From assembly GCA_964518475.1 (NCBI GenBank), contig CAZFGR010000008.1, positions 11,228-75,227 on the forward strand: DNA of 64,000 bases, given 5' to 3'. Below, one piece after another: positions 730-62,820 of the stretch; position 1 is the first letter of the stretch, and each line of letters begins with the position of its first letter. Source of the DNA: an uncultured Nitrososphaerota archaeon (GTDB lineage: Archaea; Asgardarchaeota; Njordarchaeia; Njordarchaeales; Njordarchaeaceae). The translations under genes and the position numbers were made by a program. The notes below the pieces were generated by a model. It ran no database searches. It was not told the DNA's origin and saw nothing but the letters and a program-made list of their open reading frames with translations.

Positions 730-1389
730 GTGAGGGCTATGGAGGAGTCGGTAGAAAGGTTGAAAGAGGAGATTGTTAAGGTCGGGAAATATCTGCTTGA
801 TAAGGATCTTACGATAGGTTCTTCAGGTAATATAAGTGTGAGGGTTCGAGAGAAGGAACTTGTCTTGATAACACCTAGTGGCGTGCCCTTTGATATCATG
901 AAACCTAATGATATAGTAGTTGTGGACATGAATGGGGAGGTAGTGGAAGGGGAGCGAAACCCGTCAACAGAAATGCCTACTCATCTCAGGATATATAAGG
1001 AGAGGAAAGATGTAAACGCTATTATTCACGCCCACGCAATCTATACAGGAGCACTCGCAGCCACTCACACATCAATCCCAGCAGTACTTGATGAGATGAT
1101 ACTTTATCTGGGTGGCGAAGTTGAAGTGGCGGAGTATGCACCACCAGGAACTGAGGAATTAGCTGAGAACGCCGTAAAGGCGCTTGGTAGAAAAAAAGCG
1201 GTCATTCTAGCTAATCATGGCGTACTAGTTTGTGGAAAGGATTTAAAGGACACATTAGAGATTCTTCTCAGAGTTGAACGTGTTGCTAGAATCTATATCC
1301 TATCAAAAATCATTGGAGAGCCTAAGAAATTGCCTAAAGAAGCTATAGAGCATGAGTTAGAGATATACGAGTTGCTCCTAGAGGGTTAG
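730..1389 (+). CDS. Class II aldolase/adducin family (L-fuculose-phosphate aldolase-like)
   Basis: Zn-binding motifs SGNIS, PSTEMPTH, IIHAH and ILANHG. Confidence 0.9.
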   Translation: MRAMEESVERLKEEIVKVGKYLLDKDLTIGSSGNISVRVREKELVLITPSGVPFDIMKPNDIVVVDMNGEVVEGERNPSTEMPTHLRIYKERKDVNAIIHAHAIYTGALAATHTSIPAVLDEMILYLGGEVEVAEYAPPGTEELAENAVKALGRKKAVILANHGVLVCGKDLKDTLEILLRVERVARIYILSKIIGEPKKLPKEAIEHELEIYELLLEG

Positions 1390-1393
1390 GGGT

Positions 1394-2362
1394 ATGGAGT
1401 ATGCGGAACTTGGTAGAACGGGTATAAAAATCTCTAGGATTGGGATAGGAACTTGGCAGTGGGGCTCGTCTTCATGGGGTTATGGAAAAGAATATACTGA
1501 GGAAGATCTTAGACAAGCTTTCGAAACGGCTATTGAGTATGGGATAAACTTTATTGATACGGCAGAGATGTATGGAGGAGGAAAGAGCGAAGAACTCATA
1601 GGAGAGTTTATGGAAGGGAGAAGAGAAGAGGTAATAGTCGCTTCCAAGGTATCGCCTAACCACTTAACTTACCGAGGCGTTTTGAAAGCTTTTGAATGCA
1701 GCAGTATAAGACTGAGAACAGATTATATCGACTTGTACTATGTACACTGGCCGAATCCACTCATCCCAATGAAGTGGACCGCTAAGGCGTTTCTAGAACT
1801 ATTGGAACAAGGTAAGATAAGAGCAATAGGGGTCAGTAACTTTAGTTTGAAGAGGATGATAAAGTTTAACGAATTAGTCGGGAATCAGCTTGCAGCTAAT
1901 CAGGTAGAATATAACTTGCTTCATAGAGAGCCCGAGAAGGATCTCCTCCCCTATTGCTTAGAACATGGAATCACTCTAGTCGCCTATAGTCCCCTAGCAA
2001 AAGGTGCAGTTCTAGGCAAGTATAATGAGAAAAGCCTCCCAAAAGATTTTTGGAGAAGACTTAGCACGATTTTTACTCCAGTCAATATGAGGAGACTACG
2101 ACCGTTGATAAATACTATAAAGGAGATAGCCGATAACTATGGCGTAAAACCAGTGAATGTTGTTCTTAGATACTTGATAGATAAAGGTGCTATACCTATA
2201 ATCGGTGTCAAGAGGAAGAGCCATGTAGAGGATCTAGTCCTAACCTTTGACTTTAACATGACCAGTGACGAGAGAAAGCTTTTAGAAGAAAAATTAGATA
2301 GTTTGAGACTTGTTAGATGGAGAGCTTATCCTTGGGTTATAAAAAGGGTTATAAAACCCTAA
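1394..2362 (+). CDS. Aldo/keto reductase
   Basis: GIGTWQWG, FIDTAEMYG, IDLYYVHWP, GVSNF, NQVEY, AYSPL. Confidence 0.93.
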   Translation: MEYAELGRTGIKISRIGIGTWQWGSSSWGYGKEYTEEDLRQAFETAIEYGINFIDTAEMYGGGKSEELIGEFMEGRREEVIVASKVSPNHLTYRGVLKAFECSSIRLRTDYIDLYYVHWPNPLIPMKWTAKAFLELLEQGKIRAIGVSNFSLKRMIKFNELVGNQLAANQVEYNLLHREPEKDLLPYCLEHGITLVAYSPLAKGAVLGKYNEKSLPKDFWRRLSTIFTPVNMRRLRPLINTIKEIADNYGVKPVNVVLRYLIDKGAIPIIGVKRKSHVEDLVLTFDFNMTSDERKLLEEKLDSLRLVRWRAYPWVIKRVIKP

Positions 2363-7956: not shown

Positions 7957-8334
7957 TTAAGCAAGGATCGTTGAGATAGCAGTTTGCAGTATTCGCTTAA
8001 GTTTCTTTTTATTCAATGAGTATACTCGATATTTTCCAACTCTCTCTTCCCTGGTGATTCCCAATTTCTTTAACACGGATAAATTATGAGAGACGAGTGT
8101 TTGATCAACGTTTAAAATTGAGGTCAAAGCGCATACTGGGAGTGCTGCCTGGGATAGGAGTATTAAGATCAAGACCCTTATTCTATTTGAGAACAATTTT
8201 TTAATAAGCATTAATTCGTCGATGAGTTTATCATCCGGTTTCTTAAGGACCAAATCTTTAAGATAATTATAGATTTCTCCAGAGCACTTATCTCCAAACT
8301 TTTTCTTAACTACTTCAACTACATCTATTTTCAT
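7957..8334 (-). CDS. ArsR/SmtB family transcriptional regulator
   Basis: FSNRIRVLIL, LPVCAL, QTLVSHNLSVLK, ERVGKYRVYSL. Confidence 0.88.
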   Translation of the reverse strand: MKIDVVEVVKKKFGDKCSGEIYNYLKDLVLKKPDDKLIDELMLIKKLFSNRIRVLILILLSQAALPVCALTSILNVDQTLVSHNLSVLKKLGITREERVGKYRVYSLNKKKLKRILQTAISTILA

Positions 8335-9255: not shown

Positions 9256-10560
9256 CTACTTTTCCTCTTTTTCAAAGAGATCTTTCAGTTCTATCTTAAT
9301 TCCATCAAATTCCCCCTTTATTGTTTTCGCTGCCACACCATATATTGCTTCTCTATTGTTAAGTTTTCTTCTCAATTCCTGGATTATTTCTTCTGCTTCG
9401 CTTGCTTTTAAGTCCCTCCATTTTACTTCTATCGCTAACAATTTATCATCCTCCACGCATACTATATCTATTTCTCTTTCCTTCTCCCAGTATCGTCCAC
9501 ATCTCCCTAAAATTGGTATCTTTCCAATTCTATACAAGTGTCTTAAGGAATGCCCTACTAAATCTTCGAAGACTTTTGGTAAGTAATTATTCATTTGTTC
9601 CTTTTTAAACCAGAAAGTTCCCCATTCAATCTTATCCTTGTTCGGGTACACGTACCTGACCCAGAACCTTATGTAATTGTCCTTAATGACATATATTGGT
9701 CGAGCCCTACCAATAATTGGTTTCTCTCTCACTACTATATCTAGTTTCTCTAATACATGGAGATACTTGGACAGATTTGTGATGTTAACCTTTGCTTTAT
9801 CCGATATCTTAGAATATGTTGTTGCGCCCTCTTCGATTGCTCTAATAATGTTAAGGTAGATATAGGGATCCCTAACCTCATATCGCAATAGGTTCTCGGC
9901 CTCTTCATAGAGGACTCCACCCTTATTGAAGAAGAGTCTGTTAACGTTTTCCTCAAAGCTTTTCCTCGGGTCAAATAGTGAGAGGTAATAGGGTATGCTT
10001 CCTACACACCCATATACCCTTACTAAATCTTCCAGATCATAGTTTGGGAGGAAATACTTAATATAGATAGGCTCTAATGGTCCAAGTTTCCACTGACCAG
10101 TTCTCCTACCATATAATCCGCTACCATAAGAGAAGCTCTTCTCCACAAGAGTAACCGTGGATGCCACTAGTATAAGGAATACAGAGCTCTTGCTTAAGTA
10201 CTCATCCCAGATCCTCTGCAGAATACTTAACACCCTAGGATCTTCCTCAATCCAGTAAGTAAACTCATCAATTACAACCACAATCTTCCCAGCTTCACTA
10301 AGTGCTGCGAAAATATTATCGAAGTCTGGCCTTACATATCTCCCTAAAGTGCGTGAAACTGCTTCTGCCAGCCTCTCTAACTCTAACTTAAGTGGTTGTT
10401 TCATAGCATAGAAATAAACTCCTTTCTTATCCTCCATAAATTTCTTAACAAGAACTGTTTTGCCTACCCTTCTCCTACCATAAATAACTACTAATTGAGC
10501 CTTATCCTCCCTATACAAGCTCTCGAGATAGCCTAACTCCTCCTCACGATCAATGAACAT
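9256..10560 (-). CDS. Archaeal ATPase (ATPase_2 + wHTH + DUF234/PD-(D/E)XK-like C-terminus), paralog A
   Basis: MFIDREEEL, YGRRRVGKT, VIDEF, LYGRRT, DNYIRFW, EIDIV..AIEVKW. True start is at 10560. Confidence 0.9.
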   Translation of the reverse strand: MFIDREEELGYLESLYREDKAQLVVIYGRRRVGKTVLVKKFMEDKKGVYFYAMKQPLKLELERLAEAVSRTLGRYVRPDFDNIFAALSEAGKIVVVIDEFTYWIEEDPRVLSILQRIWDEYLSKSSVFLILVASTVTLVEKSFSYGSGLYGRRTGQWKLGPLEPIYIKYFLPNYDLEDLVRVYGCVGSIPYYLSLFDPRKSFEENVNRLFFNKGGVLYEEAENLLRYEVRDPYIYLNIIRAIEEGATTYSKISDKAKVNITNLSKYLHVLEKLDIVVREKPIIGRARPIYVIKDNYIRFWVRYVYPNKDKIEWGTFWFKKEQMNNYLPKVFEDLVGHSLRHLYRIGKIPILGRCGRYWEKEREIDIVCVEDDKLLAIEVKWRDLKASEAEEIIQELRRKLNNREAIYGVAAKTIKGEFDGIKIELKDLFEKEEK

Positions 10561-10570
10561 CTCATCCAAT

Positions 10571-10615
10571 AGTATCACCATACTAAGTATCAAAATACTA
10601 AGTATTATAATACTT
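10571..10615. repeat. Triple 15-bp tandem palindrome AGTAT-N4-ATACT upstream of ATPase A
   Basis: AGTATCACCATACTA / AGTATCAAAATACTA / AGTATTATAATACTT. Confidence 0.85.
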
Positions 10616-10906
10616 AAAAATTCTAGTGCTCCGAGTTCAGACACTTTTTTAGCAAGTCCTATTTATCTTATAAGCGAGCCTTTTTCTTGCTTCCTAGGAA
10701 CCTTCAGGTAACTATCAACGCTTTATCTGCCGTCAAGACAATAGTTTTATAGGAATAAAGAAGTACCAGCTTTATATCCAATTTTGTCATAATTATTTCA
10801 TGAACCTGCTAGCCTCAGCTAGGTGTTAGTAGATAACACAGTGATTTTCTAGGTTTTAATAAGCCCCCATAAGTTCAATGAAGTTAGGAGATGTCCAAAA
10901 AGAATT

Positions 10907-11659: not shown

Positions 11660-11896
11660 TTGCAATTCGAGGGAAAAGTCGGGTCAAAAGGAGAGTTGTT
11701 TATTCCAAAAAAGCTTAGAGAAGCGTTAGGACTTAAGCCTGGAGTTAAGGTACGGTACAAACTAGTAGGGAAGAAACTGATAGTTGAGCCGATTCCTAGT
11801 ATCGAGGATATTCTTACTGAAGACCCAAAAATCGTAATTGATCTTAAAGAATTTCTAGCATTCCGTCGCAAATTATCAAAGGTGTTAGAGGATTGA
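11660..11896 (+). CDS. AbrB/MazE family antitoxin
   Basis: KVGSKGELFIPKKLREALGLKPG; overlaps the PIN gene. Confidence 0.88.
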   Translation: MQFEGKVGSKGELFIPKKLREALGLKPGVKVRYKLVGKKLIVEPIPSIEDILTEDPKIVIDLKEFLAFRRKLSKVLED

Positions 11897-12369
11897 ATAT
11901 TCTTCTGGATACTTCATATCTATTACCATTAATCAGAGTGGGTATTAAGGGATTCGAGAGAAAAGACCTCATCAGGCTATTGGTGAAATATCAGATAAGT
12001 ATTTCTTCAATTTCAATCTTTGAACTCATTGCTAAAGGAGCTAAATTTGTAGCAAATGGAGTCTTAGACTTAGAAGATGTTATGGGTGGAATAATTGCTA
12101 TTCTATCTGATAAACGTATAAGAGTTATTGATTATGTGTCAAACAGGGATATTATTGAGATAAGTATTTTTCTTAGAAAGCTTATGGATGATTTCATTGA
12201 TTGCATTATTGTTGCTACAGCACTAGCTGAGACAAATATTCTATTAACTGAAGATAATAATATCCATCAACTCCAGAACAGTAAGGAATTCTTAAAAATA
12301 AGAGAAACTGTAAATGATTCATTACAAATTCTCAACTTGAGACAATTCAAAGCAACATTTAAGATATAG
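11893..12369 (+). CDS. vapC: PIN-domain VapC toxin
   Basis: LLDTS, SIFEL, FIDCIIVATA and LLTED supply the full acidic tetrad. Confidence 0.88.
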   Translation: MNILLDTSYLLPLIRVGIKGFERKDLIRLLVKYQISISSISIFELIAKGAKFVANGVLDLEDVMGGIIAILSDKRIRVIDYVSNRDIIEISIFLRKLMDDFIDCIIVATALAETNILLTEDNNIHQLQNSKEFLKIRETVNDSLQILNLRQFKATFKI

Positions 12370-28912: not shown

Positions 28913-29380
28913 TTGGTGGTGATGATGAGTAGTTCCGAGGATATCTTGAGAGGCAATACTTTGAGAATTTACTTATATATGTTAAGGAAGCGGGAGCCTG
29001 TAGGTGTTAGGGAGATTATGCGTGCACTCGGGCTTAGAAATCCAAGCCTTGCTCATTATCACCTAAACAAATTAGTTCAAGCAGGTTATGTTAAGCAGCA
29101 AGGTAGTAAGTATATTTTAGTCAAACAAGTTAAAATAGGTATTCTTAAGCAAATAATGATTATCCAGGGTATTCTATTTCCCCGATTCGCACTATATTTT
29201 GGCCTTTTTCTCAGCTTTTTTATGACGGAGATAGTATTGGTTCTTCATGAGCAATTCCAAATAGCTTCTCTTATCTCCCTCGTATCTTTAGGCATAGGAG
29301 CTGGCATCATGTTATTGGAGACCGTTAATCTAATAAAGGAACTCCAGCCCTACATAAGAGAGACCAAGGAGAATGACTAG
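28913..29380 (+). CDS. Winged-HTH regulator with two C-terminal TM helices
   Basis: LRGNTLRIYLYML..PVGVREIMRALGL.NPSLAHYHLNKL followed by two hydrophobic helices. Confidence 0.8.
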   Translation: MVVMMSSSEDILRGNTLRIYLYMLRKREPVGVREIMRALGLRNPSLAHYHLNKLVQAGYVKQQGSKYILVKQVKIGILKQIMIIQGILFPRFALYFGLFLSFFMTEIVLVLHEQFQIASLISLVSLGIGAGIMLLETVNLIKELQPYIRETKEND

Positions 29381-29430
29381 AGACCAAATTATTTTGTGGG
29401 CAGTTGTTGAAGTTTCCGGACATTCTTTTA

Positions 29431-29475
29431 TCTAATTTTGATTAGTCTAATCATGCTTAGTCTAATCTTATTTAG
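29431..29475. repeat. Triple 15-bp tandem palindrome CTAAT-N4-ATTAG upstream of decayed ATPase B
   Basis: TCTAATTTTGATTAG / TCTAATCATGCTTAG / TCTAATCTTATTTAG. Confidence 0.82.
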
Positions 29476-29484
29476 ACAGCAATT

Positions 29485-29740
29485 GTGATAGATACTTTTT
29501 CATCAATAGGGGGCCGGAATTAGAGTACTTAGAGAAATGCTGGAGGACATATAGGACGGGTTGGTTATTGTGTGGGATCGTAGACGTGCAAGAAAACGTG
29601 TCTATTACTAGAGTATTCCAGAAACAAGAACCCACTTTCCTTTGGTGTTTTTATGAGTCCAAGTCTTCGCTTCTAAGTTTTTTACCAAAAGAGATTAGGA
29701 GACGACTAAATATCTCACTCCCGGCTATATTTTTTCCGAT
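29485..29740 (+). pseudogene. Heavily decayed N-terminal remnant of an archaeal ATPase (paralog B)
   Basis: Manual translation across frameshifts gives FINRGPELEYLEKCW..LVIVWDRRRARK.CLLLEY, matching FIDREEEL..LVVIYGRRRVGKT. The end point is approximate. Confidence 0.7.
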
Positions 29741-30042: not shown

Positions 30043-31155
30043 ATGAGAAAAAGTATAGCCATCCTTGCAATTGGCCTAGTTTCTGTTTTGCTCTTGTCTT
30101 TGCTTTATACATCTCCCCAAATTCCCATTAATGCTGATCCTGACGGAGATGGATTACCAACTGTAAAAGAGCAATCCTTAGGTACTGATCCTAATGACCC
30201 AGACACCGATAATGACGGATTAAACGACGGAGAAGAAGTCGATAGATATGGAACTAGTCCAGTAGATTTCGACACTGACGGAGACGGGCTTGGAGACGGA
30301 GAAGAAGTTAAGAAATACGGTACAGATCCCAAAGACCTTGATACAGACGACGATGGATTAAACGACGGAGAAGAAGTAAAAAGTTACGGAACCGATCCGA
30401 AAAAAACAGATACTGATGGAGACGGACTAAACGACAGAGTTGAAGTAAAGAATTTTCTCACAGATCCTAATGACCCGGATACAGACGACGATGGATTAAA
30501 CGACGGAGAAGAAGTATATGAGTACAAGACAGATCCCAGAGACCCGGATACAGACGACGATAAACTTTTAGACGGCCAAGAAGTAGAGAAAGGGACTGAT
30601 CCTAATGACCCAGACACCGATAATGATGGATATTCTGACGGTAATGATCTTTTCCCACTATTCGATGCTCATCTCAAGATACACATGGATTACTGGAAAG
30701 AATGGCGAGCAGGAGACACGTTAAACGGTGGGGATCCGTATTTCGTAATCTCAATCTATATTAAACAGGCTAATAGCTTAGTTCAATATTACTCTACAAC
30801 TATTGATGTTCAAGATGATATTATAGAAGCTTGGGACCTATTCACATTAACGGTCAATATTCCAGATAGTGCCCACTATTTACTGATAGTGATAGATGCT
30901 TGGGATGCCGATGTAGATGCCGATGATCACTATGATATAAATGGAAATGATCCATCAAAATATGCCCTTGAAATAGAATTCAATGTGCTTTCGAAGAAAT
31001 TAACAGTTGAAGGAAATGGGCTTTCGGATGGAGAAGAACCGACAGGAGGACTTACAGATGCCTATGCTAAAGTTACGATAGAAATCGTAAAACCTGTTAC
31101 TGTATCACTAACTCCTTTCAGTATAGTTTCAACCTTTCCTTTCTTTTTATCCTAA
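30043..31155 (+). CDS. Secreted protein with about seven 23-aa DxDxDGLxDGEE (TSP3-like Ca-binding) repeats
   Basis: Signal peptide; repeated [20 protein letters not shown]; near-identical DNA copies. Confidence 0.85.
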
Positions 31156-55540: not shown

Positions 55541-56906
55541 TTATTCACTCAGTAACTTGTTCAGTGTTTTCAAATCGATCAATACTCTGTGTTCATTAAT
55601 TTCTAGATCACTAGGAGCTTTCTTAGTTACTATTATGTAATAATTTCTTGGAGACATTAATCCCGTTCTCGCAGCTTTATCTTCTAATTCTCGAAACGTA
55701 TTTAGGGCCTCTTCTTTGTCCAATTCTCTCCATTTTATCTCAACAAATGTGGTAGATTTTCCGGGATCCCTGATTACGGCATCTATCTCTTCACCCTTAT
55801 ACCACCATTTACCAATTTCTATTGGTCTAGTCTTTACTACTCCTATCTCGTAGAGTTTTGGAATGAGTTCTAATACAACATCCTCAAACACGTTTGATAA
55901 GTAGTGAGATAGAGTATCTTTTATGTAGGAGAGTGCATCCTCTATATAGCCCATCTCCAAAATATTCCTTAACCTACGTATATACGTGAACCAAAACCTA
56001 AAGTAGTTATCTTAAACATGACTTTAACGGGTTTTCGAAAACCTAGAGGTCTTATTCTCCTCAGAATATCCAGTTCCTCAAGAAGTTCTATATACTTAGT
56101 TATGCTCCTAACATCTATTCGAGCTGCAGAAGCCAGCTCACTCGGGGATGTTCTCCCCTCCGCAATCATTGATAGTATTGTGAAATAGGTTCTAGGCTCC
56201 CTCACTTCTTGTCGAAGAATATTTAGAGCTTCATCATATAGGTAAGTGCCGGGAGTTATGACTGTTTTAATGTTCTCATCCACACTTTTCTCAGCACTCA
56301 GTTTCTCTAGATACGCTGGAATTCCCCCAACTACACCATAAATTGTTAGTAATTCTGTGAAGGTATATCGTGGAAAGAACCCTCTAATCTCTAGAAAATT
56401 CATTGGTTTCATCTTTAGGGAAGCCTCCCTTCTTCCAAATAATGGGCTCTTATACCCTAGTAGTTTCTTTTCGAAGAAGGAAACAGCAGAACCACACAAA
56501 ATAAGCATAATTTTGGACCGTTTGAGCTTAGTATTTATAAGTCTCTATAACCTAGAAGGAAACGTGGGATCCCCATCCACAATGTACTGAAACTCATCAA
56601 GAACTATCAAAAGCCTTTCTCTGTAGATATCAGCGATCGCATCAAGAACCTCGACTAAATCCCCAGAAATGGGCATATGTAGGAACTCCTTAACACTATC
56701 TGAGAACTCCTTAGAAATGATTTCGTAGGGAAACTCCGTCGCTATATAATAGATATGAGGCTTATCTTTAGCAAATTCAGCCAAAAGTCTCGTCTTTCCA
56801 ACCCGTCTCCGACCGTAAATAATCACAAGAGAAAATTCTTCTTTTCCCAGATACTTTCTAGGAGCCTCATCTCGTATTCTCTATCGACGAATATTTTTCG
56901 TCTCAA
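55541..56906 (-). pseudogene. Archaeal ATPase paralog C disrupted by two frameshifts and an in-frame TAG
   Basis: FVDREYEM, YGRRRVGKT, LDEFQY, SRL*RL (TAG at 56545-56547), DNYFRFW, EIDAV..VEIKW. One-base losses near 56842-56845 and 56012. Confidence 0.88.
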
Positions 56907-57222
56907 AAGACGACACCTATAGATACGCTAAGTATAATACTACTATATCAAAGAAGAGTATCACTCTATTTATTATTTGTTTTCGAAAAGACGAGAAAGC
57001 GTTTCTAGTAAGTAATATCAGGTTAGATATTGAAATATCTTCATAAACGCTATTTTTGTTAAATGAAAATATCATAAATTGAGAACTAGGATTAACTGTT
57101 CGTTTATTAAATCTACAAAGTAGAATTTATTTCCTTCTTTGCTTGGCGAAGTTTTAAAAGAATTTAATACTATATTATCTTAATGCTTCGAATTATGTAA
57201 TATGTGTGTTAGGTGACTTTAT

Positions 57223-62579: not shown

Positions 62580-62776
62580 CTATTTTGGTTCGATTATTTT
62601 ACCAATATGGTTCAATAATTATAACACCTATGGATGATATATAAAGTTTTCTGTTTAGAATGAGTACAAATATTGAGAAAGAGATTCATCAGAGAAGATC
62701 TTACATTCATCCAACGTAATGAGATTTTTTATATTCTTATATTATATTAGTCTTTCTAAATACTGAACGTCTTTAT

Positions 62777-62820
62777 CTACTATTTAGTAGACTACTATTT
62801 AGTAGACTACTTATGGGTAG
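62777..62820. repeat. Triple 15-bp tandem palindrome CTACT-N4-AGTAG upstream of ATPase D
   Basis: CTACTATTTAGTAGA / CTACTATTTAGTAGA / CTACTTATGGGTAG. Confidence 0.88.

Follow-up and report, generated by a model that had tools for sequence, protein, structure and literature searches.

Which protein reads the three tandem palindromes that lie directly upstream of an ATPase-nuclease gene in an apparently Asgard (Njordarchaeia-like) genome, and to what end? The question is raised by a 64,000-nucleotide stretch (positions 11,228-75,227) of contig CAZFGR010000008.1 (contig C8) from an uncultured archaeon. This whole stretch is hereafter called the window, and positions are counted from its first nucleotide. 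The gene in question, paralog A of the ATPase_2 + DUF234 family (COG1672), is preceded by an array of palindromic units, each consisting of two 5-bp half-sites around a 4-bp spacer (5-N4-5). Further family members are found in the window (B, C and D) and on another contig of the assembly (E). Judging from sequence comparisons, the winged-helix domain of each ATPase-nuclease probably binds its own array, and self-binding with autorepression is the best reading of the available evidence.

Triple arrays and their genes

Four arrays of three units each are considered here; being palindromic, they are listed without strand.

10571-10614: array A, three perfect AGTAT-N4-ATACT units at 10601-10614, 10586-10599 and 10571-10584, with 1 bp after each (period 15); 15/15 pairs complementary
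29432-29475: array B, CTAAT-N4-ATTAG, CTAAT-N4-CTTAG and CTAAT-N4-TTTAG; 13/15 pairs; period 15
62777-62820: array D, CTACT-N4-AGTAG twice, then CTACT-N4-GGTAG; 14/15 pairs; period 15
Contig C19, 30132-30175 (outside the window): array E, ATACC/ATACT-N4-AGTAT/GGTAT, upstream of intact paralog E

The genes behind them are the following.

9256-10560, minus strand: paralog A, intact, with ATPase_2, winged-helix and DUF234 PD-(D/E)XK domains according to Pfam, PADLOC, the AlphaFold2 model and invariant alignment columns
29485-29737, plus strand: remnant of paralog B, about 250 bp, with a GTG start, a frameshift in a T-run after codon 4 and a degenerate P-loop
62826-63998, plus strand: paralog D, ATPase_2, winged helix and the start of DUF234, open for 391 codons until contig and window end together
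Contig C19, about 28.7-30.12 kb, minus strand: paralog E, full-length and intact (locus L007)

In arrays A, B and D the unit is 14 bp long and followed by a single base pair, giving the period of 15. To place these arrays in the genome, the whole 2.33 Mb assembly was scanned for three 5-N4-5 units at 15 bp with shared half-sites and at least 13/15 complementary pairs. Exactly four such triple arrays were found, A, B, D and E, and all four lie directly upstream of genes encoding the ATPase_2, winged-helix and DUF234 combination, whereas ten genomes simulated with an order-2 Markov model contained none, even at 12/15 pairs. The preliminary description of this DNA had named an equal frequency of arrays at other genes as grounds for abandoning its proposal, and the outcome of the scan is the opposite. 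Its account of three tandem palindromic arrays with unequal half-sites was likewise sustained on re-reading and scanning, except that array B begins at 29432, one base later than had been given.

Outside the arrays, single perfect copies of each palindrome are about as frequent in the genome as chance predicts (for the A type, 8 observed versus 6.9 expected), suggesting that specificity lies in the tandem arrangement. Both a wider regulon for each protein and avoidance of the palindrome by the genome were rejected on the same grounds.

Paralogs A and D are clear members of the family. ATPase_2 (PF01637) is matched with 90 and 81.5 bits, respectively, over a gathering cut-off of 33.2, and DUF234 (PF03008) with 79.6 and 45.4 bits over a cut-off of 22.5, the lower value for D coming from a domain cut by the contig end. 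Both also match the PADLOC profile PDC-S27 (E-values of 4.6e-48 for A and 1.5e-44 for D). The Walker A motif GRRRVGKT, the Walker B DE and residues D365, E378 and K380 are invariant or nearly so among 119 homologs. The closest public record to A, labelled Candidatus Njordarchaeota, is 92% identical and matches a genome of the same genus; translation of A perhaps starts at an in-frame TTG at 10569-10567, which fits the N-terminal length of a 92%-identical ortholog.

The initial count of three paralogs behind the window arrays did not survive, since B is a frameshifted remnant with a ruined P-loop. Its frameshift was read from the three-frame translation, and blastn against the intact congener ortholog (locus L243) gives 74.7% identity over 482 nt, corresponding to window 29266-29737, with homology stopping at 29737. 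The ortholog is preceded by the same array with the same imperfect units. Decay of array B after the death of its gene was considered as the source of the imperfection and rejected, because these units are identical in front of the intact gene. Related arrays elsewhere can be more regular: a perfect threefold CTACT-N4-AGTAG precedes a homolog from the same phylum (L172), and the E ortholog from the same genus (L175) has three perfect units with spacers unlike those of E.

Arrays across the family and their place at the promoter

Upstream regions were collected from 167 homolog loci of many archaeal and bacterial phyla, gathered as relatives of A, of D or of an alignment centred on A. They were scored for two 5-N4-5 units at period 15 by palindromy and direct repetition (maximum 20, threshold at least 16). 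The score is reached by 97 of the 167 upstream regions (58%) versus 10 of 1670 dinucleotide shuffles (0.6%), which bears out the expectation of 15-bp periodic palindromes upstream of ATPase_2 + DUF234 genes, although about 42 Bacteroidales loci that are almost identical to one another inflate the raw counts. Taken separately, Thermoplasmata, Aenigmatarchaeota, Methanocellales, Thermococcus, Thermoproteales, Firmicutes, Chloroflexi, Caldiserica, Thermotogae and other groups show the pattern nonetheless. When periods of 11-20 were combined with spacers of 0-8, enrichment appeared at 15 only (up to 42 loci per spacer setting versus about 0 expected) with a minority at 16; among the 167 loci none was seen at periods 11-14 or 17-20. 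Two units are the commonest form (88 loci), and three are found in 19 loci, this genus included.

Half-sites are shared over long distances. AGTAW-N4-WTACT accompanies A-like proteins in Njordarchaeota, Thermoplasmata, Aenigmatarchaeota, Methanocellales and Thermococcus, and the CTACT, ATACT and CTAAT types are found again in bacteria.

T/A-rich boxes abut A, B and D, each a putative promoter element.

10613-10620, minus strand: TTTTTAAG, a TATA-like box that abuts the first unit of array A and overlaps it
29425-29432: TATA-like CTTTTATC, at the start of array B
62771-62777: TATA-like CTTTATC, at the start of array D

At the other end, array D stops 5 nt before the ATG, and array A 10 nt before the ATG or 1 nt before the in-frame TTG, so that the first description of arrays placed at or over a TATA-like box and ending shortly before the start codon holds. 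Many archaeal relatives have a canonical TTTAAATA-type box ahead of the array, separated from the first half-site by 0-2 bp, and in many the ATG is found inside the spacer (CATG) of the last unit. In TK1465 of Thermococcus kodakarensis, 43-48% identical to A depending on the measure, AATAA-CGCG-ATATT-A-AATAC-CATG-ATATT directly follows CTTAAAAT. The published primary transcription start of TK1465 is 1295688, the A of the ATG inside the second unit (PMC4247193 supplement), indicating that the array covers the TATA-to-start interval and that the mRNA is leaderless. Bacteria show a corresponding arrangement. In Bacteroidales a 29-bp GCAAC-N4-GTTAC-A-GTAAC-N4-GTTGC directly follows a TAnnTTTG motif and leaves about 8 nt to the ATG, and in several other bacteria the AGTAT-A-ATACT junction itself forms TATAAT.

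This position bears on two explanations that assign the palindromes a role other than that of an operator. In one, they work as RNA, folding in the 5' leader into a row of small hairpins that would govern translation or stability. Conserved "stems" and variable 4-nt "loops" between orthologs would fit such hairpins too. However, the first unit overlaps the TATA-like box, and transcription of TK1465 starts in the last unit, so most of that array is not transcribed. Moreover, the stem sequence is equal in all units of an array and invariant in orthologs, with no compensatory changes, and 5-bp A/U-rich stems would be very weak; the records of the closest homologs bear thermophile names (Thermoproteus, Thermococcus), which need not reflect the growth temperature of this organism. 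We therefore regard RNA hairpins as highly improbable.

In the other explanation, the arrays are the ends or recombination sites of a mobile cassette, or replicon iterons. Gene and array do move jointly between distant lineages, and the ATPase resembles Orc1/Cdc6 initiators, which bind repeated origin boxes beside their own gene. Nevertheless, the arrays occur on the 5' side only, no second A-type palindrome was found on contig C8 outside array A, and no conserved integrase or transposase lies nearby. The location between TATA box and start codon, together with several copies among housekeeping genes on one chromosome contig, argues against a replicator-initiator pair. We give this explanation, too, hardly any credence.

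As a separate observation, exact two-unit ATACT-N4-AGTAT arrays are present on viral contigs from IMG/VR (L203-L214, e.g. L212:2936-2964 and L213), where the family is not encoded beside the array; a Mu-like portal gene follows 26 nt downstream of one of them. They may be chance matches, sites of other regulators, or targets or decoys.

The candidate reader of the arrays

If the arrays are operators, the regulator should be sought among the genes that accompany them. Within 1.2 kb, no flanking gene family recurs in more than 4 of the 164 loci, not even among Bacteroidales with near-identical operators, which leaves the ATPase-nuclease gene as the only trans factor travelling with the site. Half-sites differ among paralogs of one genome, yet are kept by orthologs across phyla. 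Comparison of close orthologs resembles a footprint of the half-sites. Between A and ortholog L001 (92% identical), 30/30 half-site positions are identical, whereas two spacer bases and the flanks differ. Between E and L175 (77% protein identity), 28/30 are identical, with about half of the N4 spacer bases changed and flanks that cannot be aligned.

The protein has a domain suited to reading such sites. The AlphaFold2 model of A, built from the 119-homolog alignment, has a pLDDT (predicted local distance difference test) of 95.5 and combines a P-loop ATPase and a helical lid with a winged helix and, at the C-terminus, an alpha/beta nuclease domain; it replaced a single-sequence run with a pLDDT of 33. 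The predicted winged helix comprises helices 232-243 and 249-256, a recognition helix at 260-272 and a two-strand beta wing. Pfam HTH_45 and HTH_5 match A under the cut-off, and homologs have matches to helix-turn-helix domains of ArsR, IclR, MarR and TrmB type. A predicted complex of two A copies scored 0.01, which speaks neither for nor against a dimer. The domain make-up originally proposed, P-loop ATPase, winged helix and PD-(D/E)XK nuclease, is supported by the Pfam matches, the model, residues D365, E378 and K380, and the Foldseek matches described below.

Within the recognition helix, residue 265, just before the invariant Tyr266, tracks the half-site. It is Lys in 35/35 loci of the xxACT type versus 1/17 of the xxAAT type, so the suggested comparison of half-sites with recognition-helix residues yielded a candidate rule. 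In a tree built without the winged-helix columns, phylogenetically independent pairs change in the same direction four to five times and in the opposite direction never, with one tie (sign test p 0.06-0.125). The intact B ortholog, with its CTAAT array, was looked at after the rule had been set and has Pro at 265, as the rule predicts.

A different possibility is that one or more separate host regulators bind the arrays and the ATPase-nuclease is just their target gene. Small ArsR/MarR-type winged-helix genes are indeed near, at 28913-29380 directly upstream of array B and at 7957-8334 near A. The former, an ArsR/IclR/MarR-like gene on the plus strand, ends 52 bp upstream of array B. Its surroundings show DNA similarity to the congener locus from 29266, indicating that the 3' end of this gene is syntenic there too; in distant B-type loci no link between it and the array was found. 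Against such a regulator stand the variation of half-sites among paralogs in one genome combined with their sharing by orthologs in other phyla and domains, the lack of a neighbour gene conserved across loci, and the tracking of the half-site by a residue in the ATPase's own recognition helix. We consider a separate regulator very unlikely.

The central proposal of the preliminary description, a private operator read by the product of its own gene, accordingly gains comparative support from array enrichment, the 15-bp period, the absence of a conserved neighbour, half-site conservation, Lys265 and the TK1465 start. The claim that the half-sites form an orthogonal, diversifying code fares worse. 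Between D (CTACT) and E (ATACT), the outermost base of each half-site is the only difference, and B (CTAAT) is one base away from D. A (AGTAT) and E (ATACT), read towards the dyad, share their 5-mers but place them the other way round relative to the N4 spacer and are not superposable. Since the outer half-site bases are strictly kept within arrays (6/6 in L172 and 6/6 in L175), discrimination between D and E is possible, but strict orthogonality, with D insulated from E, appears doubtful from the sequences. In addition, the xTACT-N4-AGTAx class is common to many archaeal and bacterial members; with this distribution over both domains, the code seems to be kept by class and not to diversify rapidly.

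Taken as self-operators, the arrays would belong to a one-gene cassette of the PDC-S27/COG1672 family and could act as follows. The winged-helix domain would recognize the 5-bp half-sites, presumably as a dimer on each 14-bp palindrome, and two or three dimers would sit side by side, cooperatively, at the fixed 15-bp register. The occupied array would take up the room between the TATA box and the transcription start and start codon or, in bacteria, between the -10 region and the ribosome-binding site. Occupancy may then block initiation, such that the protein limits its own synthesis, repression being favoured over activation. Physical binding, the stoichiometry of dimers or oligomers, repression as the sign of control, and any tie to nuclease control or antiviral defence are points that we infer.

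Several observations weigh against self-binding with autorepression. Winged helices of STAND and NB-ARC proteins are often intramolecular modules and not DNA readers. About 40% of the loci are without an array at this geometry. The co-variation at residue 265 rests on few independent transitions, and its sign-test values are at the limit for so few pairs; Lys265 is also present in A-type proteins, where the half-site orientation is different, so the contact model is incomplete. One Methanosarcinales clade (D relatives L020, L022, L025, L029, L034 and L039-L043) has TTGTTATTAACAA-like repeats at period 16, in 2-4 copies, upstream of the TATA-like box, a position that suggests another regulatory logic, more typical of activation. 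Finally, TK1465 has RNA-seq read counts in a per-gene table (PMC4247193 supplement), so that any repression of this gene falls short of complete silencing.

The last two observations fit a scheme in which the protein does bind its own array, but mainly as a docking or assembly platform or for positive control, for example by nucleating an ATP-dependent oligomer that restrains or licenses the nuclease; the effect on transcription would be secondary or activating. The architecture of the protein is in keeping with it. In Foldseek searches with the A model, the first matches are the ATPase_2 structures 2qen (P. abyssi PABY2304) and 2fna (S. solfataricus SSO1545), followed by archaeal Orc1/Cdc6 on origin DNA, NLR resistosomes, Apaf-1 and MalT, the latter four with E-values of 1e-7 to 1e-9. 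Such Orc1/Cdc6- and STAND-like ATPases oligomerize on ligands or DNA, and each array offers 4 or 6 half-sites at a strict register. Conversely, the array fills the TATA-to-start interval in most archaeal members, or the -10-to-ribosome-binding-site interval in bacteria, which is the classical position of repression, and nothing in the sequence requires a second role. Docking or activation as the main function therefore seems unlikely to us.

Slightly less probable still is an elaboration in which the array serves as a template for four or six protomers, one per half-site, with two units assembling a tetramer and three a hexamer. The PD-(D/E)XK nuclease would be inactive while parked there, and infection or a change of nucleotide state would release the oligomer, derepressing the gene and arming the nuclease. 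The code might involve, for example, Lys265 with the G:C pair of ACT/AGT. If this were true, one gene would by itself provide sensor, switch and effector, with a protein-DNA code that can be read.

Relation to known systems and genomic surroundings

Autorepression by self-binding, as favoured here, has known parallels. Winged-helix autorepressors with palindromic operators over their own promoter include MarR/ArsR-type regulators, the AbiEi antitoxin and the C-proteins of restriction-modification systems. As in these systems, half-sites are palindromic, sites are repeated in tandem, implying cooperative dimers, the putative operator covers the core promoter, and a gene that may be harmful or serve defence would regulate itself. 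The family has the corresponding traits, namely a winged-helix fold in the predicted model of A and a palindromic candidate operator over the core promoter, marked by the TATA-like boxes in the window and by the start inside the second unit in TK1465. Unlike in those systems, the predicted DNA reader is an internal domain of an ATPase-nuclease of about 435 residues and not a small dedicated regulator, and the 15-bp register is conserved across both prokaryotic domains. On the sequence evidence, what would be new is a self-operator inside an ATPase-nuclease family, a register fixed at 15 bp in both domains and the Lys265 rule; winged-helix autorepression through tandem palindromes as such is already known.

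Among proteins, the nearest relatives of A are of two kinds. The first, 2qen and 2fna, are the best structural matches (TM-score 0.63-0.67 over the target) and have the same ATPase and winged-helix core. They differ from A in being without the DUF234 nuclease domain; no recorded function or DNA target was found for either. By sequence, phmmer against PDB entries returned 2qen as a marginal match only. The second kind is archaeal Orc1/Cdc6 (PDB 2qby and 2v1u; Foldseek ranks 3-5), where an AAA+ module is followed by a winged helix that reads repeated dyads, including origin recognition box (ORB) repeats by its own gene. Here identity is 13-18%, and A differs by its additional C-terminal nuclease, the absence of an origin context and arrays located between TATA box and start codon. 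The Walker motifs and the core of ATPase, helical lid and winged helix place A among STAND or Orc1-Cdc6-like P-loop NTPases, fitting STAND proper and the initiator clade alike.

PDC-S27 is a single-gene "phage defence candidate" of PADLOC, combining ATPase_2 and DUF234 (COG1672), and A and D share its domain order and nuclease motif. The family is common in archaea as well as bacteria; a 2026 survey of genomes from both domains counted thousands of copies and places PDC-S27/COG1672 among the ten most prevalent systems, detected or candidate. The published record treats it as a predicted, computational defence candidate only. Neither PMC12988326 nor bioRxiv 2024.01.29.577857 mentions an operator, autoregulation or DNA-binding specificity for PDC-S27. 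Literature searches for DUF234, COG1672, PF03008/PF01637, PABY2304/SSO1545 and PDC-S27 found no functional or regulatory study, nor any published description of self-operator arrays on this family; several "DUF234" matches were rejected as really concerning DUF2341, DUF2342 or DUF2345.

For a family with no known function or ligand, the cis-element would provide a predicted DNA target for every member, together with a first rule of specificity, in which a residue of the recognition helix is tied to a base of the half-site. TK1465 offers a simple experimental entry in a tractable host. The paralogs of one genome keep separate, though not fully distinct, operators, a point of relevance to the ways in which duplicated defence genes escape cross-regulation or make use of it.

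The family is present in 27/151 genomes of the phylum. The copies in the window sit among housekeeping genes and in no obvious defence island. One of them has a different kind of upstream element.

55541-56905, minus strand: paralog C, a pseudogene carrying two or more frameshifts and a TAG in frame
56898-56913: single TCGTCT-N4-AGACGA palindrome (6-N4-6) over the TTG start of paralog C; no strand assigned

The TCGTCT-N4-AGACGA element also precedes C-type homologs in related genomes (L197, L199, L235 and L238-L241).

Phased repeats were noticed at two further loci. In G000 contig C9 (L009:1093-1144), three repeats phased at 16 bp and containing CATATG/ATGCAT palindromes immediately precede the start of an ATPase_2 paralog that has no DUF234, so the habit of promoter arrays may extend past the DUF234 subfamily. 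In G000 contig C76 (L008:1724-1790), four to five T/A-rich, TTTTTCRAAATA-like repeats at period 15 are found in or just past a MarR-type winged-helix open reading frame (909-2015, minus strand) and could be either a coding repeat or a binding-site array. In the window itself, a PIN-domain (VapC-like) gene at 11893-12369 on the plus strand lies about 1.3 kb from array A, and an open reading frame at 30043-31155, also on the plus strand, encodes five bacterial thrombospondin type-3 (TSP3_bac) calcium-binding repeats.

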